DNA of 64,000 bases from a phage. Under the pieces are notes generated by a model that saw only the letters and a program-made list of their open reading frames with translations, did no database searches and was not told the origin of the DNA. This document shows, piece after piece, positions 22,571-40,958 of this stretch. Each line of letters opens with the position of its first letter. The first letter of the stretch is position 1. A program made the translations under genes and the position numbers. The stretch lies in sequence record OZ335962.1. One strand, 5' to 3'.

Positions 22571-22598
22571 ATGAACCTCGTTCAATTAGTGAGATTTC

Positions 22599-22627: not shown

Positions 22628-22630
22628 AAG

Positions 22631-22638: not shown

Positions 22639-22672
22639 CTTATTATTGAAAACACAATAGGAGCCCGGGAGA

Positions 22673-25600
22673 ATGGCCGAGATTAAAAGAAAGTTCAGAG
22701 CAGAAGATGGTCTGGACGCAGGTGGCGATAAAATAATCAACGTAGCTTTAGCTGATCGTACCGTAGGAACTGACGGTGTTAACGTTGATTACTTAATTCA
22801 AGAAAACACAGTTCAACAATATGATCCAACTCGTGGATATTTAAAAGATTTTGTAATCATTTATAATAATCGTTTTTGGGCAGCAACGGATAATATTCCA
22901 AAACCTGCTGGAAGTTTTAATAGAATTCGTTGGAAAGCATTACGTACTGATGCTGTATATACAACCGTATCATCTGGACCGTATCAATTAAAATCCGGAG
23001 AAGCAATTTCAGTAGATACGTCAGTTGGTAATGACATTGAGTTTACTTTACCACCTTCTCCGCTCGATGGAGAAACAGTAATAATTCAAGATATCGGTGG
23101 AAAACCTGGTATAAATCAGGTTAAAATAAGTTCTTCAAATCAGAGCATTGTTAATTTTAGAGGTGAACAAGTACGTTCAGTTTTAATGACTCATCCAAAG
23201 TCACAGATGATATTCATTTTTAATAATCGTTTGTGGCAAATGTATGTTGCTGATTATAGCAGAGAAGCTGCAATTGTTACTCCATCGACTGCGTATCAAG
23301 CACAATCTAATGATTTTATCGTGCGTAGATTTACTTCCGCAGCGCCGATTAATATTAAACTTCCGAAATTTGCTAATCATGGCGATATTATTAATTTCGT
23401 TGATTTAGATAAATTAAATCCTCTTTATCATACAATTGTCACGACATATGATGAAACAACTTCAGTACAAGAAGTTGGAACTCATTCCATTGAAGGCCGT
23501 ACATCGATTGACGGTTTCTTGATGTTTGATGATAGTGAAAAATTATGGAGATTGTTTGACGGGGATAGTAAAGCACGTTTACGTATCATAACGACTAATT
23601 CAAACATTCGTCCAAATGAAGAAGTTATGGTATTTGGTGCGAATAACGGAACAACCCAAACAATTGAGCTTCAGCTTCCAACTAATATTTCTGTTGGTGA
23701 TACTGTTAAAATTTCCATGAATTACATGAGAAAAGGACAAACAGTTAAAATCAAAGCTGCCGGTGAAGATAAAATTGCTTCTTCAGTTCAATTGCTGCAA
23801 TTCCCAAAACGCTCAGAATATCCACCTGAAGCTGAATGGGTGACTGTTCAAGAATTAGTTTTTAACGGTGAAACTAATTATGTTCCAGTTTTACAACTTG
23901 CTTATATAGAAGATTCTGACGGAAAATACTGGGTTGTACAACAAAACGTTCCAACAGTTGAAAGAGTTGATTCTTTAAATAATTCTACTAGAGCAAGATT
24001 AGGCGTAATTGCTTTAGCTACACAAGCCCAAGCTAACGTCGATTTAGAAAATTCTCCACAAAAAGAATTAGCAATTACTCCAGAAACATTAGCTAACCGT
24101 ACTGCTACAGAAACTCGTAGAGGTATCGCAAGAATAGCAACTACTGCTCAAGTAAATCAGAACACTACATTCTCTTTTGCTGATGACCTTATCATCACTC
24201 CTAAAAAGCTGAATGAAAGAACTGCTACAGAAACTCGCAGAGGTGTTGCTGAAATTGCTACGCAGCAGGAAACTAATACAGGTACTGATGATACTACAAT
24301 CATCACTCCTAAAAAGCTTCAAGCTCGTCAAGGTTCTGAAACATTATCGGGTATTGTAACTTTTGTATCTACCGCAGGAGCTACTCCAGCCTCTAGTCGT
24401 GAATTAAATGGTACAAATGTTTATAATAAAAATACTAATAATTTAGTTGTTTCGCCTAAAGCTTTGGATCAGTATAAAGCTACTCCAACACAACAAGGCG
24501 CAGTAATTTTAGCAGTTGAAAGTGAAGTAATTGCTGGACAGAGTCAAGAAGGATGGGCAAATGCGGTTGTAACGCCAGAAACGTTACATAAAAAAACATC
24601 AACTGATGGAAGAATTGGTTTAATTGAAATTGCTACGCAAAGCGAAGTTAATACAGGAACTGATTATACTCGCGCAGTCACTCCTAAAACTTTAAATGAC
24701 CGTAGAGCAACTGAAAGTTTAAGTGGTATAGCTGAAATTGCTACACAAGTTGAATTCGACGCAGGCGTCGACGATACTCGTATCTCTACACCATTAAAAA
24801 TTAAAACTAGATTTGATAGTACTGATCGTACTTCTGTTGTTGCTCTGTCTGGATTAGTTGAATCAGGAACTCTCTGGGACCATTATACCCTTAATATTCT
24901 TGAAGCAAATGAGACACAACGTGGTACACTTCGTGTGGCTACACAAGTTGAAGCTGCTGCAGGAACATTAGATAATGTTTTGATAACTCCTAAAAAGCTT
25001 TTAGGTACTAAATCTACTGAAGCGCAAGAAGGCGTTATTAAAGTTGCAACTCAAGTTGAAACTGTTACTGGAACGTCAGCAAATACTGCTGTATCTCCAA
25101 AAAATTTAAAATGGATTGTGCAGAGTGAACCTACTTGGGCAGCAACTACTTTGGTAAGAGGTTTTGTTAAAACTTCATCTGGTTCAATTACATTCGTTGG
25201 TAATGATACAGTTGGTTCAACACAGTCATTAGACTTGTACGAGAAAAATAGCTATGCAGTATCGCCATATGAATTAAACCGTGTATTAGCAAATTATTTG
25301 CCGTTAAAAGCAAAAGCTGTAGATAGTAATTTATTGGATGGTCTAGATTCATCTCAGTTCATTCGTAGGGATATTGCGCAGACGGTTAATGGTTCACTAA
25401 CCTTAACACAACAAACGAATCTGAGTGCCCCTCTTGTATCATCTAGTACTGCTACGTTTGGTGGATCAGTTTCGGCAAATAGTACATTAACTATTTCTAA
25501 TACTGGAACAGCAACTCAATTGATTTTTGAGAAAGGACCTCAAACTGGAACGAACCCAGCGCAGACGATGACTGTCAAAGTGTGGGGAAATCAATTTAGT

Positions 25601-26542
25601 GGGGAATCAGATACAACACGTTCTACCGTATTTGAAGTTAGTGATGAAACGTCTAGTCATTTTTATTCTCAGCGTAATAAAGCTGGTAATATAACATTTA
25701 ATATCAACGGTACAGTAACACCGATAAATGTGAATGCTTCAGGAACATTGAACGCAAATGGTGTAGCAACATTCGGTAATTCAGTTACAGCCAATGGTGA
25801 ATTTATCGGTAAATCGCCAAATGCTTTTAGAGCGATAAATGGAAATTACGGATTCTTTATTCGTAACGCTGGTAATGACACCTATTTTATGCTCACTGCA
25901 GCCGGTGACCAAACTGGTGGATTTAATGCATTACGTCCATTATCAATTAATAATCAGTCCGGTCAAGTAACGATTGGTGAAAGCTTGATCATTGCTAAAG
26001 GTGCTACTATAAATTCAGGTGGTTTAACTGTTAACTCGAGAATTCGTTCTCAAGGTGTTAAAACACCTGATTTATATACCCGTGCGCCAACATCTGATAC
26101 TGTAGGATTCTGGTCAATCGATATTAATGATTCAGCCACTTATAACCAGTTCCCGGGTTATTTTAAAATGGTTGAAAAAACTAATGAAGTGACTGGACTT
26201 CCATACTTAGAACGTGGCGAAGAAGTTAAATCTCCTGGTACATTGACTCAGTTTGGTAACACACTTGATTCACTTTACCAAGATTGGATTACTTATCCAA
26301 CGACTCCAGAAGCACGTACCACTCGCTGGACACGTACATGGCAGAAAACCAAAAACTCTTGGTCAAGTTTTGTTCAGGTATTTGACGGAGGTAACCCTCC
26401 TCAACCTTCAGATATAGGAGCGATCCCATCTGATAACGGAATAATAGGTAATCTTACTATTCGCGATTTCTTACGAATTGGTAATGTTCGCATTATTCCT
26501 GACCCAGTGAATAAAACTGTTAAATTTGAGTGGATTGAATAA
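22673..26542 (+). CDS. 34: gp34 long tail fibre proximal subunit
   Basis: 1289 aa, same length as T4 gp34; internal tandem repeats of about 40 aa (ITPKKL...TETRRG...IAT). Confidence 0.95.
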   Translation: MAEIKRKFRAEDGLDAGGDKIINVALADRTVGTDGVNVDYLIQENTVQQYDPTRGYLKDFVIIYNNRFWAATDNIPKPAGSFNRIRWKALRTDAVYTTVSSGPYQLKSGEAISVDTSVGNDIEFTLPPSPLDGETVIIQDIGGKPGINQVKISSSNQSIVNFRGEQVRSVLMTHPKSQMIFIFNNRLWQMYVADYSREAAIVTPSTAYQAQSNDFIVRRFTSAAPINIKLPKFANHGDIINFVDLDKLNPLYHTIVTTYDETTSVQEVGTHSIEGRTSIDGFLMFDDSEKLWRLFDGDSKARLRIITTNSNIRPNEEVMVFGANNGTTQTIELQLPTNISVGDTVKISMNYMRKGQTVKIKAAGEDKIASSVQLLQFPKRSEYPPEAEWVTVQELVFNGETNYVPVLQLAYIEDSDGKYWVVQQNVPTVERVDSLNNSTRARLGVIALATQAQANVDLENSPQKELAITPETLANRTATETRRGIARIATTAQVNQNTTFSFADDLIITPKKLNERTATETRRGVAEIATQQETNTGTDDTTIITPKKLQARQGSETLSGIVTFVSTAGATPASSRELNGTNVYNKNTNNLVVSPKALDQYKATPTQQGAVILAVESEVIAGQSQEGWANAVVTPETLHKKTSTDGRIGLIEIATQSEVNTGTDYTRAVTPKTLNDRRATESLSGIAEIATQVEFDAGVDDTRISTPLKIKTRFDSTDRTSVVALSGLVESGTLWDHYTLNILEANETQRGTLRVATQVEAAAGTLDNVLITPKKLLGTKSTEAQEGVIKVATQVETVTGTSANTAVSPKNLKWIVQSEPTWAATTLVRGFVKTSSGSITFVGNDTVGSTQSLDLYEKNSYAVSPYELNRVLANYLPLKAKAVDSNLLDGLDSSQFIRRDIAQTVNGSLTLTQQTNLSAPLVSSSTATFGGSVSANSTLTISNTGTATQLIFEKGPQTGTNPAQTMTVKVWGNQFSGESDTTRSTVFEVSDETSSHFYSQRNKAGNITFNINGTVTPINVNASGTLNANGVATFGNSVTANGEFIGKSPNAFRAINGNYGFFIRNAGNDTYFMLTAAGDQTGGFNALRPLSINNQSGQVTIGESLIIAKGATINSGGLTVNSRIRSQGVKTPDLYTRAPTSDTVGFWSIDINDSATYNQFPGYFKMVEKTNEVTGLPYLERGEEVKSPGTLTQFGNTLDSLYQDWITYPTTPEARTTRWTRTWQKTKNSWSSFVQVFDGGNPPQPSDIGAIPSDNGIIGNLTIRDFLRIGNVRIIPDPVNKTVKFEWIE

Positions 26543-26550
26543 GAGGTATT

Positions 26551-27666
26551 ATGGAAAAATTTATGGCAGAGTTTGGACAAGGATATGTCCAAACGCCATT
26601 TTTATCGGAAAGTAATTCAGTAAGATACAAAATAAGTATAGCGGGTTCTTGCCCGCTTTCCACAGCAGGACCGTATGTTAAATTTCAGGATAACCCCGTT
26701 GGAAATCAAACATTTAGTGCAGGTCTTCATTTAAGAGTTTTTGATCCTTCTACGGGAGCATTAGTTGATAGTAAGTCATATGCTTTTTCTACTTCAAATA
26801 ATACTACATCAGCTGCTTTTGTTAGTTTCATGAATTCTTTGTCAAACAATAGACTTGCTGCTATATTGACTAGCGGAAAGGTTAATTTTCCTCCTGAAGT
26901 GGTATCTTGGCTAAGGAAAGCAGGAACTTCAGTTTTTCCATCAGATTCAGTATTGTCAAGATTTGACGTATCATATGCTGCTTTTTATACTTCTTCTAAA
27001 AGAGCTATTGCATTAGAGCATGTTAAACTAAGTAATAGAAAAAGCACAGATGATTATCAAACTATTTTAGATGTTGTATTTGATAGTTTAGAAGACGTCG
27101 GAGCTACGGGATTTCCTAAAAGAACATATGAAAGTGCCGAGCAATTTATGTCAGCGGTTGGTGGAACTAATAACGAAATTGCGCGATTGCCAACTTCAGC
27201 TGCTATAAGTAAACTATCTGATTATAATTTAATTCCTGGTGATGTTCTTTATCTTAAAGCACAGTTATATGCTGATGCTGATTTACTTGATCTTGGAACT
27301 ACAAATATATCTATCCGTTTTTATAATGAATCAAATGGATATATTTCCTCGACCCAATCTGAGTTTACTGGGCAAGCTGGGTCATGGGAATTAAAGGAAG
27401 ATTATGTAGTTGTTCCTGAAAATGCAGTCGGATTTACTATATATGCGCAGAGAACTGCTCAAGCTGGTCAAGGCGGACTGAGGAATTTAAGCTTTTCTGA
27501 AGTATCAAGAAATGGCGGCATTTCAAAACCTGCCGAATTTGGCGTCAACGGTATTCGCGTTAATTATGTCTGTGAATCGGCTTCACCTCCAGATATAATG
27601 GTACTTCCTACACAATCCTCTTCTAAAACTGGCAAAGTGTTTGGGCAAGAATTTAGAGAAGTTTAA
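26551..27666 (+). CDS. 35: gp35 long tail fibre hinge protein
   Basis: 371 aa starting MEKFMAEFGQGYVQTPFLSE; SD AAGAGG. Confidence 0.9.
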   Translation: MEKFMAEFGQGYVQTPFLSESNSVRYKISIAGSCPLSTAGPYVKFQDNPVGNQTFSAGLHLRVFDPSTGALVDSKSYAFSTSNNTTSAAFVSFMNSLSNNRLAAILTSGKVNFPPEVVSWLRKAGTSVFPSDSVLSRFDVSYAAFYTSSKRAIALEHVKLSNRKSTDDYQTILDVVFDSLEDVGATGFPKRTYESAEQFMSAVGGTNNEIARLPTSAAISKLSDYNLIPGDVLYLKAQLYADADLLDLGTTNISIRFYNESNGYISSTQSEFTGQAGSWELKEDYVVVPENAVGFTIYAQRTAQAGQGGLRNLSFSEVSRNGGISKPAEFGVNGIRVNYVCESASPPDIMVLPTQSSSKTGKVFGQEFREV

Positions 27667-27671
27667 ACTGA

Positions 27672-27699
27672 GGGAGCCTTCGGGTTCCCTTTTTCTTTA
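27672..27699 (+). terminator. rho-independent terminator after gene 35
   Basis: GGGAGCC-UUCG-GGUUCCC hairpin followed by UUUUUCUUU. Confidence 0.6.
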
Positions 27700-27705
27700 T
27701 AAATA
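27698..27705 (+). promoter_or_regulatory. late promoter TATAAATA for gene 36
   Basis: Exact TATAAATA 24 nt upstream of the gene 36 ATG. Confidence 0.65.
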
Positions 27706-27728
27706 ATATTAAAATAAAGGGGCATATA

Positions 27729-28379
27729 ATGGCTGATTTAAAAGTAGGTTCAACTGTGGGTGGATCTGTCATTTGGCATCAAGGAAATTTTCCATTGAAT
27801 TCAGCCGGTGACGATGTACTCTACAAATCATTTAAAATATATTCAGAATATAACAAACCACAGGCAGCTGATAACGATTTCGTTTCTAAAGCTAATGGTG
27901 GTACTTACACCGGTCCAATTACTATTAATTACGGGGTAAATAGTTATCTTCAATTAAGTAATAATGAAACCCCCATTCGAATTCGTTCTGGTGGCGGTAC
28001 CGGTAATACTCTTGTAATCGGTGGCTCTTCTGGTGGTATTAGTTTTAGACCTGCAGGTAGTGAAATCACTACTGGACAAATTACTATTACGCCAGAAGGT
28101 TTGACAACATTTACTAGGGCTGTAACGGCTCCATCTGTAACTGTTACATCTACTCCTTCAGCAGCGTCTGATGTTACTCGTAAAGATTATGTCGATGGAG
28201 CAATAAATACTGTTACGGCAAATGCGAATTCTAGAGTTTTGCGTAAAGGTGACACCATGACAGGTAATTTAACAGCGCCAAACTTTTTCTCGCAGAATCC
28301 TGCATCTCAACCCTCACATGTTCCACGATTTGACCAAATCGTGATTAAGGATTCTGTTCAAGATTTCGGCTATTATTAA
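27729..28379 (+). CDS. 36: gp36 long tail fibre distal connector
   Basis: 216 aa at the gene 36 position. Confidence 0.85.
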
Positions 28380-28387
28380 GAGGACTT

Positions 28388-31372
28388 ATGGCTACTTTAA
28401 AACAAATACAATTTAAAAGAAGCAAAACTGCAGGTCAACGTCCTGCTGCTTCAGTATTAGCCGAAGGTGAATTGGCTATTAATTTAAAAGATAAAACAAT
28501 TTTCACAAAAGATGACTCAGGCAGTGTTATAGAATTAGGTTTAAAATATGGAGGAACAATTGATGGTTCTTTAACTGTTAATGGAAGTATAGTTGGAAAT
28601 TTAACAGGTAACGCTGCAACTGCAACGAAATTAAAAACAGCACGAAAAATTAATGGTATATCCTTTGATGGGTCAAAAGATATCACGCTAACTCCATCTG
28701 ACATAAATGTCAATAGCACAACGTTTATAAAAAATAACGGCGAATTACCGGTTGATGCTAATTTAGATGAGTATGGGCCTGTTGAAGAATATCTTGGAGT
28801 TTGGTCGAAAGCAACTTCAACCAACGCTCAACCAGCAAATAAATTTCCAGAAGAAAATGCTGTAGGTGTGCTAGAAGTATTTGTGTCCGGTCAATTTGCT
28901 GGTACTCAGAGATATACAACCAGATACGGAAATGTTTATATTCGTTCCTTGACTGCTACATGGAACGGAGTAAATGGTCCGTGGAGTGTGTGGCGAAATA
29001 TTCAATCCGGTACTCGTCCACTGTCAACAACAATTGATCTTAATGATCTAGGAGGTGCTGAACACTTTGGCTTGTGGAGGAATAGTTCAAATTCCATTGC
29101 CACCTTTGACAGAAATTTCCCAGAAGAGGGGTCGTCAGCTAAAGGTCTTTTGGAAGTATATGAAGGGGGAAGCTATTCTCGTACACAAAGATATACGACC
29201 ATGTTTGGTGTTGTTTATACTCGCTGTCTTACTGCCGCGTGGGATGCTACTGCTCCTAAATGGGGACCGTGGCAACAAGTCGGTAATGTCACACCAGCGA
29301 CTTTCTATGATGGAAACCTGAATGATTTTAAAACTCCTGGGTTATATAACATTTTAGGCACTGACAAAGTTACTAACCGTCCAGTCGCAGAAGGCGTTCC
29401 GGTTGAGATGACCGCATTGCTTGAGGTTAAACAACGTGCTTCCGGCGCCGCTATTTTCCAACGTTTCACTACCGCAGGAACGGGATCTACTACTCGTGGT
29501 CGTGTTTTTGAACGTGCAATGACAAATAATATCTGGGGAGATTGGCACGAAGTATATACATCTTATTCTCTGCCAATTACTTTGGGTATGGGTGGTATTA
29601 AAGCTCAATTAGCGGAGTTAGATTGGCAAACCTTTGATTTTGTCCCTGGTAGTATGTTTAGCGTTCCTTTGAATAAAATAAAGAACATGCCAGCAAATAT
29701 GGATTGGGGGACGATTGATGGAAACTTGGTTATGTTTTCTGTCGGTCCTAGCGAACATACTAGCACAGGGCGTACTGTTCAGGTTTGGCGCGGTACTGTA
29801 TCCCAGACAAACTACCGCTATTTTGTCGTTCGTGTATTCGGTAATTCAGGAAATAGAACTTGCACAGTTCGTCGTGTTGTTCTTGAAGATGGTCGCCACA
29901 AATGGACAGCGCAGCAAGATTTTAATGGCGCAGTTAACTTCGGTGCTCCTACCAATTTTAACTCTACTGTTAACCTTAATAACACTACCACTTTTAAAAC
30001 AGAAGTTAAATTCCGCTCATTGAATGCATTTAAAATGTACGGCGGTAAGTTTGGCGCAATTTTCCGTAATGATGGAGAGAGTCTTTATATTCTTTCCACC
30101 GACGAAGATGATCAAGATGGAAACTTTAATACAAATAGACCTTTCCGTTATGAATTGAGAACTGGTGATGTTACTTTAGGTGGTACTAGTGGTGCTAACG
30201 TTTTAAAATTAAAACGTGATTCTCTCACCGCATTTTTTGGTGGTGATATTAATATAAAAGGCTTGATGACTTTTGACGCCGGACGTTTAGGATCACGAGA
30301 TTATTTTAAATTTAACCATTGGGGTGATAGTAATAATGCGCGTGATAACATTATTCAGTTAGAAGACAGCAAAGGAGTTCATTTTTCCACTGAACGTACT
30401 TTAGCGACTGGTGCAATTAAGACTAAATTTTTTGGTGAAGTTGAATCCGATGGTAGATTGATTATTAAACGTCCGGGTGATTCTATTGTATTATCAGCAC
30501 CTGCTAGTAATTCTTTGCATATTCGTGGTGACGTAGACGGGACTAATAACTGGTATATTGGTAAGGGTGGTGATGATAATGGATTAGCGTTCTATAGTTA
30601 TGCTACTAATGCTGGTGTATACATTACAAACGCAGGGGATATCACGCTAAGTCCAAAAGGCGTCGAAATGGCTCATGTTAATAACGTTCGATTATATGTT
30701 CATGGTGAACGTTGGACCGCTAGTCAACCAGGTGATTGGGGCAACCAATGGCGAGTAGAAGCGCCAATATTCGTCGATCATGGTTATGTTGGATCAGATA
30801 GCTATTATCCAATTATTAAAGGAAGAAGTGTAGTCACCAATCAAGGGTATGTAACTGCCGTCGATCTTGGTATTCGTCGTATCCCTAATAATTGGGGACA
30901 AGCAATTATTCGTGTTGGATCTGCGGAGGCTTCTCCTGATGCTGGTCATCCTAACGCGGTATTCGAGTTCCACTATGATGGGTTCTTTTATGCACCAGGA
31001 AATGGAAGTTTTAATGATGTGTATATTCGTTCCGATGGTCGTCTTAAGATTAATAAAAAAGAGCTAGAAAACGGAGCGGTTGAAAAAGTTTGCCGACTGA
31101 AAGTTTATACTTACGATAAAGTTAAGTCTATTAAAGACCGTAGTGTTATTAAACGTGAAGTTGGTATTATTGCGCAGGATCTTGAAAAGGAATTGCCGGA
31201 AGCTGTATCTAAAGTTGAAGTTGATGGATCTGATGTTTTGACAATTTCTAACTCTGCTGTGAATGCTCTTTTAATTAAGGCCATTCAGGAAATGAGCGAA
31301 GAAATTAAAGAATTGAAAACACCTTTCTTCACTAAAATTGCTCGTAAAATTAGCAATTATTTTAAATTCTAA
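28388..31372 (+). CDS. 37: gp37 long tail fibre distal subunit with a C-terminal intramolecular-chaperone-like domain
   Basis: 994 aa; N-terminus [21 protein letters not shown]; C-terminal about 130 aa resemble self-cleaving chaperone domains (T2-type). Confidence 0.9.
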
Positions 31373-31404
31373 CAACAAGGGGCTTTGCCCCTTTGGAGAA
31401 AATT

Positions 31405-32205
31405 ATGGCAGTAGTTGGTGTTCCTGGTTGGATTGGAAGTTCATCCGTAAATGAAACAGGACAACGATGGATGAGTCAAGCGGCTGGTCAATTAAGATTG
31501 GGTGTTCCTTGCTGGATGAGTCAATTTGCAGGTCGCTCAAGAGAAATTATTCACACACTTGGAGCAGACCATAACTTCAATGGTCAATGGTTCCGAGATA
31601 GATGTTTTGAGGCAGGTAGTGCACCTATAGTGTTTAATATCACAGGAAATTTGGTATCATATTCTAGAGATGTTCCTTTATTCTTCATGTATGGAGATAC
31701 ACCAAATGAATATGTTCAGTTGAATATTATCGGTGGAGCTCATATGTGGGGCAGAGGTGGACAAGGTGGATGGACTCATTCTGGTGGAGATGGTAATGGT
31801 CAACAGGGTGGGCATTGTATTCAAAATGACATTGGTGGTCGATTAAGAATTAATAATGGTGGAGTAATTTGTGGCGGTGGCGGCGGTGGTGGCGGTATCG
31901 CTTATCGTCCTCACTCTGGTGCAAACTGGCAAGATATTGGTGGCGGTGGAGGAAGACCATTTGGCCCAGGAGGTGGCGGTGGTTATTCAGGAGGTGCTGC
32001 TTCTTATGATGGCCCAGGAGGCGGCTATAATTATGGTAATGCTCACTCTGGTCAGGGTGGCGACGCTGGCGGAAATGGACAAAATGCCTGGAATGATGGC
32101 GGTAAAGTACTAAAAGTCGGGGCTGGCGGGGCTGCAGGTTATGCTGTAATAGGGTCTGCTCCAACATGGCAAAATGTTGGAGTAATATATGGTCCAAGAG
32201 TATAA
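31405..32205 (+). CDS. 38: gp38 receptor-binding adhesin (T2/T6 type, glycine-rich)
   Basis: 266 aa from ATG with SD GGAG; N-terminus [13 protein letters not shown]...[10 protein letters not shown] and several polyglycine tracts (GGGGGGGG). Confidence 0.85.
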
Positions 32206-32236
32206 TTTTGAATAAATATCCTTAAAAGGAGGGTCT

Positions 32237-32893
32237 ATGGCAGCACCTAGAATATCATTTTCGCCCTCTGATATTCTGTTGGGTGTTCTAGATCGCTTGT
32301 TCAAAGATAATGCTACCGGGAAAGTTCTTGCTTCCCGAGTAGCTGTCGTAATTCTTTTGTTTATAATGGCGATTGTTTGGTATAGGGGAGATAGTTTCTT
32401 TGAGTACTATAAGCAATCAAAGTATGAAACATACAGCGAAATTATTGAAAAGGAAAGAAATGCACGCTTTGAATCTGTCGCCCTGGAACAACTCCAGATA
32501 GTTCATATATCATCTGAGGCAGACTTTAGTGCGGTGTATTCTTTCCGCCCTAAAAACTTAAACTATTTTGTTGATATTATAGCATACGAAGGAAAACTAC
32601 CTTCAACAATAAGTGAAAAATCACTTGGAGGATATCCTGTTGATAAAACTATGGATGAATATGCAGTTCATTTAAATGGACGTCATTATTATTCCAACTC
32701 AAAATTTGCTTTTTTACCAACTAAAAAGCCTACTCCCGAAATAAATTACATGTACAGTTGTCCATATTTCAATTTGGATAATATCTATGCTGGAACAATA
32801 ACCATGTACTGGTATAGAAATGATCATATAAGTAATGACCGCCTTGAATCAATATGTGCTCAGGCGGCCAGAATATTAGGAAGGGCTAAATAA
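32237..32893 (+). CDS. t: holin T
   Basis: 218 aa, single N-terminal TM helix and a large periplasmic domain, as in the T4 holin; SD AAGGAGG. Confidence 0.9.
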   Translation: MAAPRISFSPSDILLGVLDRLFKDNATGKVLASRVAVVILLFIMAIVWYRGDSFFEYYKQSKYETYSEIIEKERNARFESVALEQLQIVHISSEADFSAVYSFRPKNLNYFVDIIAYEGKLPSTISEKSLGGYPVDKTMDEYAVHLNGRHYYSNSKFAFLPTKKPTPEINYMYSCPYFNLDNIYAGTITMYWYRNDHISNDRLESICAQAARILGRAK

Positions 32894-33166
32894 TTATTTG
32901 TTTGTATACATCTCTAGATATCGATATACACCCTCAAAACCCTCGTTGAATTCGTCGATGAGGGTTTTCTTATCTTCTTGAGTTAAGTCAGAAACAATTT
33001 TACGGAATGAATTCTGATTTAACTTTCTACCTTCATGCGTTACTCCAATCTCATTCAGAAATGCAATAAAATTAGCGCGATTCTCAACAATATCTTCTCT
33101 GGAAAATTTAATCAAAATAGACGCAACAGTAATAATTTCACGAACTGTATCAATATTTTTATTCAT
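32894..33166 (-). CDS. asiA: AsiA anti-sigma-70 factor
   Basis: 90 aa starting MNKNIDTVREIITVASILIKFSREDIVENRANFIAFLNEIGVTHEGRKL, matching T4 AsiA from memory. Confidence 0.9.
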   Translation of the reverse strand: MNKNIDTVREIITVASILIKFSREDIVENRANFIAFLNEIGVTHEGRKLNQNSFRKIVSDLTQEDKKTLIDEFNEGFEGVYRYLEMYTNK

Positions 33167-33197
33167 TAACTATACCACTCAATTAGTTGACTTTGCT

Positions 33198-33227
33198 ATA
33201 ATATCATCAGACGTTTGATTTGTAAAC
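33198..33227 (-). promoter_or_regulatory. early promoter for asiA
   Basis: Minus strand GTTTAC, 18 nt, TATTAT. Confidence 0.55.
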
Positions 33228-33328
33228 TGGTCTGTGGTATTTTCTTCAAAAAATTTTTTCTACGAATTCCTTGAACGACTTACGTTCCTGAGCTACATTA
33301 TGCTCGATTACTTTTTCAAGATTATGAC

Positions 33329-33607
33329 TCATTCGAAATAATCTTCAATTTCATAATCAAGGACATAAATCATTATAGTTTTTAATACATCATCAATACT
33401 TTTTCCTGGAGCTGGAATTACGTAAAAATATCCCGCCTTTGAATTATCTTTATAAGTTCCAATCAAGAAATCATTATTCCCAAGATGTAGTTCTTCAACT
33501 AATTCATTAACAATTGAGTGGTATAAATTTGGTAGAAACTTGTATAGCTTTTCTAGAATATCAATTTTGATTGTGTATTGAACCACAGATTGAGAATCAA
33601 TAATCAT
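33329..33607 (-). CDS. arn: probable Arn (anti-restriction inhibitor of McrBC)
   Basis: 92-aa acidic protein directly upstream of asiA, as in T4. Assigned by position and size only. Confidence 0.5.
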   Translation of the reverse strand: MIIDSQSVVQYTIKIDILEKLYKFLPNLYHSIVNELVEELHLGNNDFLIGTYKDNSKAGYFYVIPAPGKSIDDVLKTIMIYVLDYEIEDYFE

Positions 33608-33690
33608 AGACCTTCCCCTTATGTTTCTGTTTGCGATTAGATTCTTTAAACGCTTTCTTCTTATCCTTATGGACAGAAGCTTTATTAAAA

Positions 33691-33909
33691 TTATGTTTTG
33701 CGACTAAATTGTTCATAGTGCTGAATTACCTCTCTTAAACAATTGCACGTGAATGAAAACTTTTTAGCTACACCACATTCAAATATATGTTCTCTTAAAT
33801 CACGTGTATCAGTATATCCCATCTCAACGATAAAATGCCGTATTAGATTTTTATCTTTATCATTGAGAGAATTAAAATAATCGGATTTTGAATTAATTTC
33901 CCTGGCCAA
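33691..33909 (-). CDS. hypothetical early protein
   Basis: 72-aa ORF. Confidence 0.4.
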   Translation of the reverse strand: MAREINSKSDYFNSLNDKDKNLIRHFIVEMGYTDTRDLREHIFECGVAKKFSFTCNCLREVIQHYEQFSRKT

Positions 33910-34189
33910 ATTGAATCACCTTCAGTTGACGTTTTAGTTCTTTTATCATTTCTTCGTTCATCGCAATATAAAGATCGCGTAAAGCAGGTTTTAACATGTC
34001 ATTTATTATAGAACTAAATGGACATACATAATCTTTTCCTACAAGCTTTTTAGTGAATTCCATATCGCAGAACTTAAATCCCGGTTCATTGGCATAAATT
34101 CCCCAATTAGTTGACATCATTTTATTAGCATATTCCAGTGCCTGGATTTGATTCATAATTCCATCAATTTGAAACTTTTTAATATTCAT
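33893..34189 (-). CDS. hypothetical early protein
   Basis: 98-aa ORF. Confidence 0.45.
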   Translation of the reverse strand: MNIKKFQIDGIMNQIQALEYANKMMSTNWGIYANEPGFKFCDMEFTKKLVGKDYVCPFSSIINDMLKPALRDLYIAMNEEMIKELKRQLKVIQFGQGN

Positions 34190-34650
34190 TAGTAAAGGTC
34201 CTCAGAGTAAAGTTCTTTTTCACTACCACCGCGTTCAATACGTACTTGTCCTGCGTAAGTTGCAATAATCATTGCTTCTTCACGTGTCCAATAATTACTA
34301 TACTGATCAATAAACCCTTGGTCATCATCACAAACTTGCTGAGTAACTAATTGGGGTTTAACTACATCTAAAACTTCTGCCATATCTTTAGAATAATGAC
34401 GAGCACCTGGAATAACAAGAGTTCGTCCATCTTTTAATTTAAAACGGTTGGCTGCGCAAACAATTCGTCGTTGATATTTTTGATTTTCGTCCCAATATGC
34501 AGACTGCCAACAGATTTCAGGAACTTCTTTCAGAATATCTTCTTCTGTGCATTTATAACCATGCGCTTTAAATTTTTCAACAAGACTTTCTGGAGTTTCG
34601 CGAGATAAAGGAACATTCAGCATTTTTAAACGATTAATAAATGGGTTCAT
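34189..34650 (-). CDS. hypothetical early protein
   Basis: 153-aa ORF. Confidence 0.5.
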
Positions 34651-34991
34651 TTAAACCATCCTTTAATACGCTGCCACAAAGTTTTCTGTCGAGCTTTGTT
34701 AACACCAATTGAGCGAATAACTGGTTGAGATTCCTGGAATTCTTTATAATCAGCAAGGTAAATTTCGTAAGCCGATTGAACAAAGGTACTAATCGCTGCC
34801 ATGAAGTTTTTACGTACACCGCCAGGAGCTACTCCGTTGGGTAATTCAGAATTTTCACGAATAATTAAATATAGCCCAGTTCTAACTTTAACAATAGTTC
34901 CAAGATAAGCTCCATGGTACCAGATGTCCCACCCCTCTTGAGTGGGTTCTGCACAACGACGAAGTTCATTAACAATTTCTAACTTGTTCAT
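34647..34991 (-). CDS. hypothetical early protein
   Basis: 114-aa ORF. Confidence 0.45.
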
Positions 34992-35001
34992 TATTTATTC
35001 C

Positions 35002-35637
35002 TCACAGTTCAGATGCTACGGTGATTACTGCTTCAATGTTTTCTGCCGAGCGTTTAATGTCAAGATACACATTGCCGTTTTTAGCGATTTTACATGACAT
35101 TCCAATATCAGTAAATTTCTGAATATGGTGTTCCATCATTTTGTATCCAAAAATTCGCATATTTCCATTGTTATTAATTTCAAAATTACGAATTCCGTGA
35201 GTGCGTTTTTCTAAAATAGCAAGATAGTTACTGCGGTAAGTTTCAACCTTTTTAAGAACAAATCCATTTTCATCTAAAAGTTTTAACATGAAGTCTTTAT
35301 CTTCTTCCATATCGGAAGTAATCTCGCGAGCTTTACGAGTTGCTCGTTTTTTCAGTAGTTCAGGAGCATTTTCCTGCGCGTATAAAGTTGCTGCATTTGA
35401 AATAATATCCTGAGCTTCGCCTGTAATGATTAATCCATCACCAGATTTCTCCACCAGGCCTTTTTTAATCAATACCCCAATATTACTATTAACTACTGCG
35501 TTACCTAAATCTGGATGCACCTCACGAACTTCTGCGGCTGTAATGAAATCTTTCTTAGCAATGGTAATTAAAATCGCAGCAGTTTTTTCATTCAGAACAT
35601 CGTTAGAAGCTTTGATGATGTAAGTTACTTTAGACAT
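35002..35637 (-). CDS. motA: MotA middle-transcription activator
   Basis: 211 aa, same length as T4 MotA; positioned before gene 52. Confidence 0.85.
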   Translation of the reverse strand: MSKVTYIIKASNDVLNEKTAAILITIAKKDFITAAEVREVHPDLGNAVVNSNIGVLIKKGLVEKSGDGLIITGEAQDIISNAATLYAQENAPELLKKRATRKAREITSDMEEDKDFMLKLLDENGFVLKKVETYRSNYLAILEKRTHGIRNFEINNNGNMRIFGYKMMEHHIQKFTDIGMSCKIAKNGNVYLDIKRSAENIEAVITVASEL

Positions 35638-35674
35638 TTTAATCTCCGTTTCAGTTCATTTATTTGATAGGTCT

Positions 35675-35703
35675 ATAGTATCATGTTTAAAGCAGAAGTA
35701 AAC
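35675..35703 (-). promoter_or_regulatory. early promoter for motA
   Basis: Minus strand GTTTAC, 17 nt, TACTAT. Confidence 0.55.
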
Positions 35704-35742
35704 ACTTTTTTGCACTCTTTTTCAAGAGCTCTAATAAAGTAC

Positions 35743-35970
35743 TTACTTAATGTTCAGATTACGAACTTCGATTTCGTCTTCATGGGCAAAATCAAACTGT
35801 TTGAATTCTGTGTCACCTTTAAATTTAAAAATCATTGTGAAGAAAGTCAGAACACCGGGTTTTTCTTCACGAACTCCACAGATATCATATTCAATACCAT
35901 CTACAACCAGTTTGTTAGCAGTCAGAGCATTTTTAGCTTTAACGATTTCGTTTTCGATTTTAAATTTCAT
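35743..35970 (-). CDS. hypothetical early protein
   Basis: 75-aa ORF with its own promoter. Confidence 0.45.
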   Translation of the reverse strand: MKFKIENEIVKAKNALTANKLVVDGIEYDICGVREEKPGVLTFFTMIFKFKGDTEFKQFDFAHEDEIEVRNLNIK

Positions 35971-36018
35971 TTTTTGTATCTCCGGGTTGTTTGTTTCAGT
36001 TCATTTATTTGATAGTTG

Positions 36019-36048
36019 TATAGTACCATAAAGCTTTATGCTTGTAAA
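36019..36048 (-). promoter_or_regulatory. early promoter; copy 2 of the repeated promoter module
   Basis: Minus strand GTTTACAAGCATAAAGCTTTATGGTACTAT; the spacer contains a perfect 14-bp palindrome. Confidence 0.55.
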
Positions 36049-36071
36049 CCGTTTTGTGAAAAAATTTTGAA

Positions 36072-36102
36072 ATAAAAAAAAGGGAGAGCCTCGGCTCTCC
36101 CT
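36072..36102 (-). terminator. rho-independent terminator
   Basis: Minus strand GGGAGAGCC-GAG-GCUCUCCC followed by a U8 run. Confidence 0.7.
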
Positions 36103-36106
36103 AAAA

Positions 36107-36256
36107 TTACTGCATGACTGTGATAACTGTCATGATAACACGTTGAATTCCGAACGCAAGAAGACCTCCTGCTACGGCAGGAACAACACCTAAACCCGCC
36201 AGTAAAATGCCACCAGATACTAATGCAGCGCTTGTAATACCTATGAATGGACTCAT
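36107..36256 (-). CDS. small hydrophobic membrane protein (49 aa)
   Basis: MSPFIGITSAALVSGGILLAGLGVVPAVAGGLLAFGIQRVIMTVITVMQ; its ATG overlaps the gp52 TGA. Below the ORF-track size cutoff. Confidence 0.45.
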   Translation of the reverse strand: MSPFIGITSAALVSGGILLAGLGVVPAVAGGLLAFGIQRVIMTVITVMQ

Positions 36257-37581
36257 TTGATTTCCTCTAAATCTTTGGTGTATTCTGTAACTACATCAGT
36301 AGTTTTCCAATATTCGTTTTCTTCTTTTTTAGCTTTAGCTTCTTCAGCAAGTTTCTTTGCTTCGTCGGAAGTCATATGAAAAATATTCATTCCAACTAGT
36401 TTATCAACATAAGAAGAATACATATCAATTTTAGAAAGTTCTTCGGTCAGTTCTTTGCGAGTTTTACCCTGCACAACAATTTCATCTGAAATTACTTTCT
36501 TAATGAAATGCGCCTTGGCAAAGGCTAAACGAAATGCTGATTCAGTTTCTTTGATTTTGTTATCAATTCGTTTTTGGACATAAGTTTTACGAACTTCAAC
36601 GAAGTCTTTGATTAAATCAACTACGTTATCGTAAACTTGTAGTTTTCCTTTCTCATTAATAACGGTAATATTCTGGGAACGACGCTCAATCAACCCGAAG
36701 TCTTTCATAATTTTTGCATGGCGTTCTTCTTCGTTATCGCTCAAAGAGTATTCTTTACGGAATTTAACTTTAAAGCCAAACCCGTGCTCACCACAAGCAT
36801 CATCCCACATAATGAAGCCTTTATCTTCAAGCGGGTCTAAGATTTTACTCACATAAGTTTCACGATCATACTTATACGGAATCTCAGTGATATTCATTTG
36901 AGTTCGTGAAGTAAACTTGTACGTTCCACGAATTTCATATTGACCGTCAATTTCAACGACTTCACCGCGAAATTCTGGAAATTCTACCTTCGGTTTAGTT
37001 ACTTTCTTTCCTTGAAGAGCTTGCAATACAGCTTTCTTGACAGAAGAAACACTATGAGGAAGAATATAAGTTGCATAACCAGTTGCAATACCGGAAACAC
37101 CATTAAGAAGAACAGTAGGAATAATAGGCAAATAGAAAGCAGGCGGAATGTGTTCTTTATCTTGATGTACCGGAGCATATTCAGTATCTTTATATACGCT
37201 ATAGAAATTTTTACTTACACGAGCAAAAATATAACGACTTGCCGCTGCTTTTTGAACGGTACGAGAACCAAAGTTTCCTTGACCATCTAACAGAGGAAAG
37301 TTATTATTCCAAGTATTAGCCATCAAAGCACCTGCGTCTTGTGCAGAGTTTTCACCATGATGATATCCAAGGTCTGCTACACCACCTGCAATAGAAGCGA
37401 GTTTGTGAAACTTATCTTTATTTCCTCGTGCCAAATCAAGAGCTCGAGCAATAACAAATCGTTGAACTGGCTTAAATCCATCAATCATATTTGGGATAGC
37501 ACGATTTTCAACCGTGTACATAGCATAAGCCAATGCTTCATTATCAATGATACTTTTTAAATCGCGATTATTCAGTTGCAT
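36253..37581 (-). CDS. 52: gp52 topoisomerase II medium subunit (GyrA-like)
   Basis: 442 aa, same length as T4 gp52; N-terminal GyrA-like DNA breakage-reunion region. Confidence 0.9.
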   Translation of the reverse strand: MQLNNRDLKSIIDNEALAYAMYTVENRAIPNMIDGFKPVQRFVIARALDLARGNKDKFHKLASIAGGVADLGYHHGENSAQDAGALMANTWNNNFPLLDGQGNFGSRTVQKAAASRYIFARVSKNFYSVYKDTEYAPVHQDKEHIPPAFYLPIIPTVLLNGVSGIATGYATYILPHSVSSVKKAVLQALQGKKVTKPKVEFPEFRGEVVEIDGQYEIRGTYKFTSRTQMNITEIPYKYDRETYVSKILDPLEDKGFIMWDDACGEHGFGFKVKFRKEYSLSDNEEERHAKIMKDFGLIERRSQNITVINEKGKLQVYDNVVDLIKDFVEVRKTYVQKRIDNKIKETESAFRLAFAKAHFIKKVISDEIVVQGKTRKELTEELSKIDMYSSYVDKLVGMNIFHMTSDEAKKLAEEAKAKKEENEYWKTTDVVTEYTKDLEEIK

Positions 37582-37585
37582 AAAT

Positions 37586-37726
37586 TTACCATACTAGTGA
37601 ATGTAGTGCCATAATAACATCAGAAATGAAAAGCACGACTTGAATTAATCCGAACATTACTCCATAATATAGTGCTACCAATAAAGTAGCAAGGGCTAAT
37701 GAATAGCCCAAGATTTTCTTAATCAT
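37586..37726 (-). CDS. small hydrophobic peptide (46 aa)
   Basis: MIKKILGYSLALATLLVALYYGVMFGLIQVVLFISDVIMALHSLVW; overlaps the upstream small ORF. No clear SD. Confidence 0.35.
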   Translation of the reverse strand: MIKKILGYSLALATLLVALYYGVMFGLIQVVLFISDVIMALHSLVW

Positions 37727-37877
37727 TAGTAGATAACAACACAAATGTTAAATATGCACACATACCCTGGGCTAAAGCTTGTGAAAACACACTGCTAGCA
37801 TCGATACAGATAGTTAAAACACATGCTACTATCCAACAAATAAATGAAATAACTCCTAATAATTTTGCGATATTCAT
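37719..37877 (-). CDS. small membrane protein (52 aa), paralog of the next gene
   Basis: MNIAKLLGVISFICWIVACVLTICIDASSVFSQALAQGMCAYLTFVLLSTND; SD GAGGAG. Confidence 0.5.
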   Translation of the reverse strand: MNIAKLLGVISFICWIVACVLTICIDASSVFSQALAQGMCAYLTFVLLSTND

Positions 37878-37887
37878 AATATTCTCC

Positions 37888-38043
37888 TCAACTATTTTTA
37901 GAACCAATGTACGCGAATAATGATAAAATCGCTAATACGCCCTGAGCTGATGCTTGCAAAAATACTGAAGTTTCTCCAGTTATTACTGTTCCGATGCATA
38001 AAAAGAACCAACAGAAAAAGGTTATACCGTGAACAAATTTCAT
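37888..38043 (-). CDS. small membrane protein (51 aa), paralog of the previous gene (T4 ac/52.1 position)
   Basis: MKFVHGITFFCWFFLCIGTVITGETSVFLQASAQGVLAILSLFAYIGSKNS; SD GAGGAAAA. Confidence 0.5.
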   Translation of the reverse strand: MKFVHGITFFCWFFLCIGTVITGETSVFLQASAQGVLAILSLFAYIGSKNS

Positions 38044-38050
38044 ATTTTCC

Positions 38051-38131
38051 TCACTGGCGTCCGAAGACGCCTTTAGTTTTAAGATTGTTACGATAGAACT
38101 GCATCACGTGTTCGTTATGGAAATTACTCAT
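38051..38131 (-). CDS. stp: Stp peptide (26 aa)
   Basis: Translates [26 protein letters not shown], the T4 Stp sequence as I recall it; TAATG overlap with the ndd stop. Confidence 0.8.
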
Positions 38132-38586
38132 TAGTATGCCTGCAAAACAAATTTAAAGTTATCAGCCAACATACGGTTCATTTCTTCAAGCGTTTGATAC
38201 TCAGAATGATGATTACGAGTAAACGCTAAAGCTAACTGGCCTTTTCCAAATCCAGTCGTTAGAGGTTTCATCTTAGAAGCAGGCAAATAAAATACTGTGT
38301 ATGGAACATTGTTATTTGTAATAGTACGCGCAAGCTGAGACCGACGTTGACGAATATGACTTAGAACTGCACTGAACCCTTGCTTAGAACGCTGATTACC
38401 TACATAAAATCGCGCAGATACACATGGACTATCAAATGGACCACCAAATTTGCTCACTAAAAAGTAAAATCCGGGTTTAGACAAAATGTCTTTATGTGGA
38501 GTTCCAAAAACCCATTCACCGCCCTTGATTGTACCAATAACAGTTGCGCCTGCATTATTCAGATCAGTAACAGTCATGTATTTCAT
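38131..38586 (-). CDS. ndd: Ndd nucleoid-disruption protein
   Basis: 151 aa from [25 protein letters not shown]; SD GAGGAAA. The track's 16-codon extension was trimmed. Confidence 0.85.
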
Positions 38587-38646
38587 ATTAATTTCCTCTA
38601 AATTATTTTCTACTCCAAGGCCGCATGAATACACACGGCCGATAAA

Positions 38647-38862
38647 TTAATCGTCGCAGTCGACGCTCAATTCCCAAAACTCTTCTACGGTATATGTTTC
38701 AGTATCATTTTCAATACAGAAACGTTTATTACTGTTGTTTTCTAAAGTAGCGTTAACTGTCATTTTCTCGCTAGTGCTCTTAAGAGGTGAAATACGAATT
38801 AACTGATCACCATTATCTAAACAAAAAATTTCACCAACTTTTACATCTTTAAAAATTTTCAT
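38647..38862 (-). CDS. hypothetical early protein
   Basis: 71-aa ORF. Confidence 0.45.
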   Translation of the reverse strand: MKIFKDVKVGEIFCLDNGDQLIRISPLKSTSEKMTVNATLENNSNKRFCIENDTETYTVEEFWELSVDCDD

Positions 38863-38977
38863 AATTCACCTCAAGGAGTATAAAATCCGAATGCAGTTGT
38901 TGACCATCCCATCCAATACGGAAAATTTGCACCGACGTAAAACATGAGAATATAAAACCAACCACTCAATAAATTCA

Positions 38978-39175
38978 TCATTTTACACCATTCCAAATTG
39001 TTTCAACCACAGATTTTAAGCCATTTTGATGAATGTCCATTCCGACAACTGCCATCAAATAAATTCCAACTACAACTGAACCTAAGGCGAAAATCAGCAT
39101 GAAAATGAATAAAGCCGGAAAAATATTATCAAAAAACCATTCAACAAATGTAAAAGCACTGCGTTTACGCTTCAT
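38978..39175 (-). CDS. small membrane protein (65 aa)
   Basis: MKRKRSAFTFVEWFFDNIFPALFIFMLIFALG...; SD GAGGAAAA. The track start is a TTG. Confidence 0.45.
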   Translation of the reverse strand: MKRKRSAFTFVEWFFDNIFPALFIFMLIFALGSVVVGIYLMAVVGMDIHQNGLKSVVETIWNGVK

Positions 39176-39182
39176 ATTTTCC

Positions 39183-39296
39183 TCACATAAATCCAAAGTA
39201 AGCGTTTAATACATCAATCATTAAAACGATTGGGAATATACTCAAAACTACTAGTATTATAACTACATTCCATATAGCTTTAACAATCTTTTTCAT
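39183..39296 (-). CDS. small membrane peptide (37 aa)
   Basis: MKKIVKAIWNVVIILVVLSIFPIVLMIDVLNAYFGFM; SD GGAGGAACAG. An early promoter lies inside the track's longer ORF. Confidence 0.45.
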   Translation of the reverse strand: MKKIVKAIWNVVIILVVLSIFPIVLMIDVLNAYFGFM

Positions 39297-39323
39297 TTTC
39301 TGTTCCTCCGTAGTTGATAGGGT

Positions 39324-39356
39324 AATAGTACCACAGAGGAACAGTCTTGTAAACCA
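39324..39356 (-). promoter_or_regulatory. early promoter
   Basis: Minus strand GTTTAC, 18 nt, TACTAT; flanked by a 9-bp inverted repeat CTGTTCCTC/GAGGAACAG. Confidence 0.5.
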
Positions 39357-39539
39357 CTTTTTTAAAAATATTCGTAATAAATGTGAATACCAATCACCAC
39401 TGCCGAAACTTGCGCAACCCACCATGCACAAGCAATAAGTACAGAATTCAAAATTTTCATAATAACCTCATTACAAAAGTAAATGTTAAACAAATTAATG
39501 GAATACTAATTAACCAAACGAAACACCACCATAATGAAC

Positions 39540-39803
39540 TCATAGTTCAATCTCAACGATTTTCATTTCATTACTATTAATAGCCGCTTTAAGACTATCT
39601 GAAAGAATTACACACCAGTGGTCATTCATATGACCATTAACTAAACGTGTAATTTCTTCAGGAGTTGAAAAATAAGGCGTATCAGACTCCCAATGCGATA
39701 GTCCCAAGCGAGTATAAATCATACCTTCATCATCGCTATAATATTCAACTGACACAAACTCATCAGTTATTTTATGTTTAGCGTAATAAAATTTAAATTT
39801 CAT
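39540..39803 (-). CDS. hypothetical early protein (87 aa)
   Basis: From MKFKFYYAKHK with SD GGAGGAG, downstream of the promoter at 39811..39840. Confidence 0.45.
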   Translation of the reverse strand: MKFKFYYAKHKITDEFVSVEYYSDDEGMIYTRLGLSHWESDTPYFSTPEEITRLVNGHMNDHWCVILSDSLKAAINSNEMKIVEIEL

Positions 39804-39810
39804 TTTTACT

Positions 39811-39840
39811 CCTCCGTAGCTGATAGTTGTATAGTACCAC
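39811..39840 (-). promoter_or_regulatory. early promoter; copy 3 of the repeated promoter module
   Basis: Minus strand GTTTACATACCACAAGGACTGTGGTACTAT. Confidence 0.55.
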
Positions 39841-39877
39841 AGTCCTTGTGGTATGTAAACCGTTTTGTGAAAAATTT

Positions 39878-40435
39878 TTAAATGGAAAGATACCATCCAT
39901 TGTAGTTGCTTTTTCTTACAACCTTACGAAGGTCTTCTCTGTCACCGATGAACTTCGGAGTGTACTGGATGACACCTGGATGAATTTCTTTAGTGTTGAA
40001 TATAATTATACAGTCAGCGACCTGATGATTCAGAATGGGCCCTAGATTTATTCCAGAACCGTATGGATACTCTCCGCTGCATCCGGTTGTTACCGAAATC
40101 CAACGTGAGTCAGTTTGATGTGTTTTGACTTCTACACGAAGCCCGCAGTATCTTGGATGCGCCAATACATCCCATGCATATGTATACGGGTCATTAACAT
40201 CCTCTTGCCCTTTGTTAACATAGCCGCTTAGCCAATCTGCTACAAAAAATTCTGCGTACACCGCGATACGACATCTTTCAATAACTTCTGCTTTATCCTG
40301 GTTCGGGTTTTGTTTTAAAGAGTATCTTGCTGTATCAGCAATTTTGACCTTCATTTCACTAGTCAAGTCACTGTTCGATAGGGTAAATGTCGGAATCTGA
40401 AATAGTCTCTGTAAACCCGGATTCGTTTTCTGCAT
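39878..40435 (-). CDS. denB: endonuclease IV
   Basis: 185 aa, same length as T4 DenB; position between ndd and rIIB. Confidence 0.8.
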   Translation of the reverse strand: MQKTNPGLQRLFQIPTFTLSNSDLTSEMKVKIADTARYSLKQNPNQDKAEVIERCRIAVYAEFFVADWLSGYVNKGQEDVNDPYTYAWDVLAHPRYCGLRVEVKTHQTDSRWISVTTGCSGEYPYGSGINLGPILNHQVADCIIIFNTKEIHPGVIQYTPKFIGDREDLRKVVRKSNYNGWYLSI

Positions 40436-40697: not shown

Positions 40698-40708
40698 AAT
40701 TTTTCCTT

Positions 40709-40731
40709 AAAACAAAAGGGCCGAAGCCCCT
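40709..40731 (-). terminator. intrinsic terminator-like hairpin
   Basis: Minus strand GGGC-UUCG-GCCC followed by UUUUGUUUU. Confidence 0.5.
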
Positions 40732-40735
40732 TATT

Positions 40736-40930: not shown

Positions 40931-40958
40931 AATTTTCCTTAGTTAAGGGCCGAAGCCC

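Follow-up and report, generated by a model that had tools for sequence, protein, structure and literature searches.

Gene 38 of a Tequatrovirus-like phage very probably encodes a monomeric adhesin capping the trimeric gp37 tip, with type-1 loops and OmpA as the predicted receptor

Phage T4 binds its receptor with the tip of gp37 itself; the gp38 of T6 recognizes Tsx, and T2-like gp38 recognizes FadL/OmpF. The RefSeq note for T4 records that the gp38 of the T2 subfamily is unrelated to T4 gp38 and is the adhesin. The organization of these adhesins was laid out by Trojet et al. 2011 as a scheme of five GRMs and four HVSs (PMC3157838). In chimeras of RB5 and RB32, the 400-bp segment of RB32 that contains the HVSs moves its receptor specificity to RB5 (PMC3157838), and in a gp38 swap between CM8 and EV240 exchange from HVS2 onward was enough to switch porin specificity (bioRxiv 10.64898/2026.04.02.716166). 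Structures are represented by the S16 gp37-gp38 complex (6F45) and by the receptor-binding domain of PP01 gp38 (9V85; PMC12892980), and the gp38 proteins of both S16 and PP01 are OmpC binders (PMC12892980). OmpA is used by several others: Ox2 is the classic OmpA phage (cited in PMC12032242); RB32 requires OmpA and is affected by LPS-core mutations, a dependence on LPS that may be indirect (Trojet et al., PMC3157838); FL08 and AV119 need OmpA and belong to 'type 1', infecting strains with all eight tested OmpA loop variants, and R165, H167-A170 and D217 of FL08 are the predicted OmpA contacts in this type (PMC12032242).

The window analysed here, a stretch of 64,000 nucleotides of phage DNA (OZ335962.1), carries gene 38 at 31405..32205 on the + strand. 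The gene runs from an ATG at 31405 to a TAA at 32203-32205 and encodes 266 aa, which the open reading frame, Pfam, the PDB and its relatives together identify as a receptor-recognising tail-fibre tip adhesin. A Shine-Dalgarno GGAG, read from the sequence, lies at 31395..31398 on the + strand, 6 nt before the ATG. A mechanical ORF list had placed the start at a TTG at 31393; because this codon falls within and overlaps the Shine-Dalgarno region and the homologues all begin MAVVG/MAVEG, we take 31405 to be the true start. Glycine makes up 71 of the 266 residues (27%), rising to 38% over aa 110-266 from 11% over aa 1-109, and 49 of the 71 glycine codons are GGT or GGC. The 266-aa length, the N-terminus and the glycine-rich stretches quoted in the initial annotation are all present in the open reading frame, except that a run given there as GGGG is in fact five glycines long (aa 179-183); the other prominent runs are an 8-Gly run at aa 157-164 and a further glycine tract at aa 187-197. 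We are highly confident that this protein, from a Tequatrovirus-like phage, is a monomeric adhesin capping the trimeric gp37 tip by means of the mechanism proposed below, with type-1 loops and OmpA as its predicted receptor; what the window itself provides is its family membership, its fold, its module map, its allele class and the architecture of gp37. The protein is already known and thoroughly characterised, and this copy is without unusual features: an identical sequence is in the databases, from one ENA contig only, and its 90% cluster has 132 members under the name 'receptor-recognizing protein gp38'.

Two Pfam families together cover almost the entire protein. GP38 (PF05268, 'Phage tail fibre adhesin Gp38') matches aa 47-266 with 228 bits and E=1.5e-67 across profile positions 1-218 of 218 (bit cut-off 25), and Gp38_N (PF21721) matches aa 1-42 with 70.6 bits (cut-off 25) and E=1e-19. 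Given the E-value of the GP38 match, the pattern of glycines is not a matter of chance. A sequence search of the PDB with gp38 returned two entries only, 9V85 (E=5e-72) and 6F45_D (E=8e-50). Built with 64 homologues, an AlphaFold2 model has a mean pLDDT of 87.2 and drops below 50 only at aa 1-14; the low pLDDT of aa 1-20 in this monomer model is expected of a segment that would dock on gp37. A Foldseek search of the PDB with this model recovered the same two structures, 9V85 (E=1e-25, TMt 0.85) and 6F45_D (E=9e-23, TMt 0.82), beyond which the next match had E=3. The predicted fold is thus that of 6F45_D/9V85, namely an attachment domain joined to a polyglycine-II sandwich. The initial annotation had called the protein an adhesin-type gp38 and had named structure prediction as a check; the Pfam matches, the two PDB sequence matches and the fold all agree with it, the model resembling solved gp38 adhesins only.

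The locus around gene 38 has the order 35-36-37-38-t, which is also that of RB32, SHFML-11, FL08, wV7, Ox2 and T4. Gene 35 (26551..27666) encodes 371 aa with a single Pfam match, to ILEI ('Interleukin-like EMT inducer'; E=1e-6 over aa 58-125, 29.7 bits where the cut-off is 27), a label that is unexpected for a tail-fibre hinge protein. It is followed by gene 36 (27729..28379) and by gene 37 (28388..31372, +), which encodes the 994-aa distal long-tail-fibre subunit and carrier of gp38, with Pfam matches to Gp34_trimer, gp37_trimer and Peptidase_S74; the holin gene t lies downstream of gene 38 at 32237..32893 (Phage_holin_T, E=3e-117). The Peptidase_S74 intramolecular-chaperone domain of gp37 spans 31031..31207 on the + strand (aa 882-940, Pfam E=8.5e-11) and aligns with S16 gp37 (6F45_A, E=3.7e-5), whereas Pfam finds Collar and Phage_fiber domains in T4 gp37 and no S74 domain. 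A gp37 ending in an S74 domain is, judging from these domain matches, the architecture expected of fibres capped by gp38, as against the T4 fibre, which binds the receptor directly. Over positions 20000..44000 of the window the closest phage records are ~95-96% identical, the best being ESh25, L14 and ph0021. From this and the single ENA contig with the identical gp38, the window probably belongs to a Tequatrovirus-like genome that is uncultured or metagenomic. The stretch of gene 37 at 30440..30977 (~aa 685-863) has no blastn match in RB32 or SHFML-11, to which the locus is otherwise 88-95% identical; its identity to ESh25, PBM-1 and EPIMAM01 is 98.9%, and the final 250 aa of gp37 nearly coincide with the C-terminus of phage Ox2 gp37.

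To map the modules of gp38 we used the positional entropy of 118 family members, drawn from a search of 5.8 billion proteins and aligned with MAFFT, together with a 64-sequence subset. In both sets the block order is exactly that of the Trojet scheme, with five GRMs alternating with four HVSs, and the view of the initial annotation that glycine tracts separate variable segments is borne out by this alternation of conserved and high-entropy blocks in the 118-sequence alignment. The N-terminal attachment module (31405..31530, +; aa 1-42, corresponding to Gp38_N) is of the T6/M1/Ox2/RB32 variant: aa 1-60 are identical to Ox2, and identity over aa 1-115 is 90-97% with T6, M1 and RB32 and 75-80% with FL08, AV119 and wV7. 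The N-terminus had been described as conserved; it is so, but as one of at least two attachment variants, the other (MAVEG--PWVGWSARV...) being that of FL08, AV119 and wV7, where it is fused to the same specificity domain as in the window. The variant of FL08/wV7 goes with a clearly different gp37 end, and the variant found in the window pairs with two pre-chaperone regions, that of the window and Ox2 versus that of RB32 and SHFML-11; as a check on docking, this co-variation with the gp37 tip is informative only in part. The attachment module is followed by a conserved central alpha/beta region (31543..31749, +; aa 47-115) with low entropy and pLDDT of 92-95.

The specificity domain begins with GRM1 (GRGGQGG; 31750..31770, +; aa 116-122), in which G116, R117, G118, G119 and G121 are invariant. 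HVS1 (31771..31806, +; aa 123-134) has high entropy and is 100% identical to RB32, FL08, AV119 and wV7 and 17% identical to T6, M1 and FL18. GRM2 (31807..31896, +; aa 135-164), with an entropy of 0.5 and many invariant columns, leads to HVS2 (31897..31938, +; aa 165-178), which contains R168-P-H-S-G-A173, the counterpart of R165-A170 of FL08. GRM3 (31939..31974, +; aa 179-190) has invariant G182, G183, P185, G187 and G190, and the high-entropy HVS3 (31975..32049, +; aa 191-215) is 100% identical to RB32/wV7, 88% to FL08/AV119 and 16-36% to T6/M1/FL18. GRM4 (32050..32082, +; aa 216-226) carries D220, the counterpart of D217 of FL08. HVS4 (32083..32124, +; aa 227-240) has the highest entropy of all, 2.08, and is 93% identical to type-1 alleles and 7-14% identical to T6, M1 and FL18. 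By the alignment, GRM5 (aa 241-250) and the conserved C-terminal strand or strands (aa 251-266) complete the protein at 32125..32202 on the + strand. The initial annotation had also taken the variable segments for the likely host-range determinants, and these are indeed the published determinants of specificity (PMC3157838, PMC12032242, bioRxiv 10.64898/2026.04.02.716166).

The label T2/T6-type, which the protein had been given, stands for the family and fails for the specificity allele, which by sequence comparison is the 'type 1' (OmpA) allele of Ox2/RB32 and only 46-55% identical to T2-like/T6. Identity of the window protein over aa 116-266 is 98% with RB32 and wV7, 96-97% with FL08 and AV119, and 49-56% with T6, M1 and FL18; for T6 the identity over this domain is 55% and falls to 7-20% within the HVSs, and T2 is 46% identical over aa 1-151. 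In the alignment the type-1 contact residues correspond to R168, H170-A173 and D220 of the window protein. Position 169 is P here and in RB32 and Ox2, and V in FL08 and AV119; a few positions in the HVSs differ from FL08/AV119. A tblastn search with the specificity domain alone (E<=1e-3; low-complexity masking cut the scores, so that none stood at E<=1e-20) found 79 phage records covering at least 80% of the domain, and 78 matches were at least 95% identical. The isolation hosts of these carriers are E. coli, Shigella, Salmonella and Yersinia. One further record, EPIMAM01 (PQ493298.1), matches gene 38 at 156408..157335 in two pieces over 928 nt, as against 801 nt in the window, with the match limited to aa 1-63 of the specificity domain, which suggests an insertion or a recombinant gene 38.

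Rates of substitution (Nei-Gojobori, window against RB32) show how this allele has been maintained. Gene 38 differs from that of RB32 by 63 nt and 6 aa, giving a dS of 0.375 and a dN/dS of 0.031 for the whole gene; the concatenated HVS1-4 have a dS of 0.351 and a dN/dS of 0.039, the concatenated GRM1-5 a dS of 0.538 and a dN/dS of 0.012, and the adjacent holin gene t a dS of 0.068 and a dN/dS of 0.057. The so-called hypervariable segments hence differ between allele classes and are under strong purifying selection within type 1, and dN/dS values of 0.031 overall and 0.039 in the HVSs indicate that the loops of gp38 are functionally constrained. This allele of gene 38 is far older than the flanking DNA, as fits an exchange of alleles through recombination. 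Against Ox2 the DNA of gene 38 is 91-99% identical in the first 300 nt and ~70% identical over the specificity domain, and such steps point to sharp recombination boundaries inside and beside the gene. Variation in the HVSs reflects the exchange of old, conserved alleles rather than rapid point mutation.

It could be asked whether the product is instead an assembly chaperone of the T4 type, which aids the folding of gp37 and is absent from the virion, given that it occupies the same genomic slot as T4 gp38, between g37 and t, and that some close homologue records carry the label 'distal long tail fiber assembly catalyst'. However, the best BLASTP match of the window protein to T4 gp38 (NP_049864.1) has E=0.82 and extends over 20 aa only; T4 gp38 is without any Pfam family, whereas the window protein matches both GP38 and Gp38_N; its fold matches adhesin structures only; and the gp37 of the window carries its own intramolecular chaperone. 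The 'assembly catalyst' labels on adhesin-type gp38 are a legacy of annotation transfer. Pairwise BLASTP, Pfam and the fold search in this way rule out the T4-type identity, whose probability we regard as negligible, and the statement of the initial annotation that the protein is not of the T4 chaperone type withstands the homology comparison. The records of adhesin-type gp38 from wV7 (AEM00910.1), T6, Bp7 and PhAPEC2 are named 'distal long tail fiber assembly catalyst' or 'tail protein and peptidase', and such names descend from the unrelated T4 gp38. Nor do we give much credence to a second coding sequence on the opposite strand. An antisense ORF at 31850..32197 (-) has 115 open codons from a TTG start and could be read as a real overlapping gene of 115 aa, but a product with 21% His, 13% Arg and 18% Leu is the outcome of reverse-complemented GGT/GGC runs, which in that frame are read as CAC/CGC. 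In RB32, despite 97.7% identity of gp38, the same antisense frame has an extra stop and a longest open stretch of 98 codons. The sole nearby sigma-70-like match, at 32212..32184 (9 of 12 positions), is within the chance number, and in T4-type phages the tail-fibre region is late-transcribed on the + strand. Composition, the logic of the frame and the extra stop in RB32 rule this ORF out as a gene, an interpretation we hold to be most improbable, and favour its description in the initial annotation as a by-product of repeated GGN codons.

With the adhesin identity taken as given, the Ox2/RB32 'type 1' loop set makes OmpA the predicted primary receptor, and we consider this very probable. A different primary receptor, such as Tsx, OmpC, OmpF/FadL, OmpX or an LPS sugar, would call for retargeting by a few substitutions, of which the window protein has some to offer. 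It is converted to RB32 gp38 by S14A, I109G, A112V, N174K, G223A and N230H, among which N174 lies in HVS2, G223 in GRM4 and N230 in HVS4; N230 is common only to SHFML-11 among the aligned sequences, and we found no receptor typing for SHFML-11 in the literature. Single changes in gp38 are reported to have extended Ox2 host-range mutants from OmpA to OmpC or LPS in the work of Drexler et al. 1989/1991, which would be a precedent for such a change of receptor. The single substitution Q206L separates OmpF from OmpW use in RB51/RB68 gp38 (bioRxiv 10.64898/2026.04.02.716166), and the comparison of SV76 with T2 shows that one HVS substitution can change the receptor (PMC3157838). Against this, all four HVSs of the window protein are 86-100% identical to those of three independently typed OmpA binders (RB32, FL08 and AV119) and closely resemble those of Ox2, the residues predicted to touch OmpA are kept, the dN/dS of 0.04 in the HVSs indicates that one function has been maintained, and in published trees close C-domains of gp38 have common receptors (PMC12032242, bioRxiv 10.64898/2026.04.02.716166). 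A primary receptor other than OmpA is accordingly quite unlikely. Only marginally less unlikely is a milder departure, in which N174, G223, N230 and I109 (just before GRM1), combined with an Ox2-type gp37 tip, would bring, in comparison with RB32, Ox2 and FL08, a changed recognition of OmpA loop variants or a second receptor; N174 and G223 are also present in the OmpA-typed FL08 and AV119. If it were true, the host range of this phage could not be predicted from its typed relatives. RB32/RB33 receive no mention in the main text of the 2026 receptor-screen preprint. With OmpA as the receptor, the composition of the LPS core probably affects infection as well, by analogy with RB32, whose dependence on LPS may also reflect gp12.

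Signals in the surrounding sequence would place gene 38 in a larger transcription unit. A T4-type late-promoter box TATAAATA lies at 27698..27705 on the + strand in the 35-36 intergenic region, upstream of gene 36; the whole window has seven TATAAATA boxes, not above shuffle expectation. Between g37 and g38 there is no such box, the nearest being that at 27698, before g36, and a promoter of its own for g38 was rejected on this ground. Since no TATAAATA box precedes g38, it is probably co-transcribed with 36-37, and the box at 27698, solely by its position, is the probable start of a 36-37-38 transcript. A scan for sigma-70 promoters and terminators across 31000-33000 gave nothing above shuffle expectation. 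Between the g37 stop and the Shine-Dalgarno sequence of g38 there is a hairpin at 31379..31391 (GGGGC-TTT-GCCCC, with a 5-bp G+C stem), followed by three T only; its predicted fold is no better than that of shuffled sequences (z = -1.5), and the hairpin might act as a weak attenuator or affect RNA stability, or have no role at all.

Taken together, these observations allow a mechanism to be proposed for the fibre tip. Folding and trimerisation of gp37 would be aided by its own C-terminal Peptidase_S74 domain, which would then be cleaved off, as in fibres of the S16/T2 type. The N-terminal module of gp38 (aa 1-45) would dock on the gp37 tip so exposed, in the manner of 6F45, and the five GRMs are predicted to pack into a polyglycine-II sandwich, a rigid scaffold that would present HVS1-4 as distal loops. 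These would engage an outer-membrane protein, here OmpA, at its extracellular loops and so set host range, as suggested by work on related proteins (PMC12032242, PMC12892980) and by the swaps described above. The docking on gp37, the loop-receptor contacts and the choice of OmpA are thus modelled on published, near-identical alleles. The sole addition to the earlier annotation is the assignment of the allele to Ox2/RB32 type 1, with OmpA as its predicted receptor. This allele class permits a sequence-based prediction of OmpA use, rather than of the OmpC/LPS receptors of T4, and can serve host-range prediction, the design of cocktails and the anticipation of resistance through loss of ompA; the value of the assignment is practical only, and no open question is advanced by it.

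Set against the known systems, gp38 of the window lies farthest from T4 gp38 (NP_049864.1), an unrelated chaperone of 183 aa with which it has nothing in common but gene name and genomic slot. With the S16 gp37-gp38 complex (6F45) and the PP01 gp38 receptor-binding domain (9V85) it has family and fold in common, being 43% identical to S16 gp38 and 62% identical to PP01 gp38 over the aligned regions, though the loops differ. T6/T2-like gp38 has the same family and GRM scaffold, and the N-terminal half of T6 gp38 is 90% identical. The gp38 of FL08/AV119 has another N-terminal variant, whose aa 1-115 are 75-80% identical and aligned with a gap of 2 aa, and it is borne on a longer gp37 (1109 aa) with a different chaperone domain. 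The gp38 of Ox2 (X05675, CAA29158.1), also of 266 aa, is 88% identical without gaps and has a homologous set of HVSs; its ~30 substitutions fall mostly in aa 105-266, where the DNA is only ~70% identical. The closest of these proteins is gp38 of Shigella phage SHFML-11 (ANN86681.1), which differs by I109S and V260I alone (99.2% aa identity) and by 9 nt, although the gp37 of SHFML-11 has 1030 aa against 994 aa in the window and a different distal segment. The gp38 of RB32/RB33 (YP_803186.1), whose gp37 differs from that of the window in the tip region preceding the chaperone domain, has likewise 266 aa and is 97.7% identical, with the same N-terminal variant and the same four HVSs.
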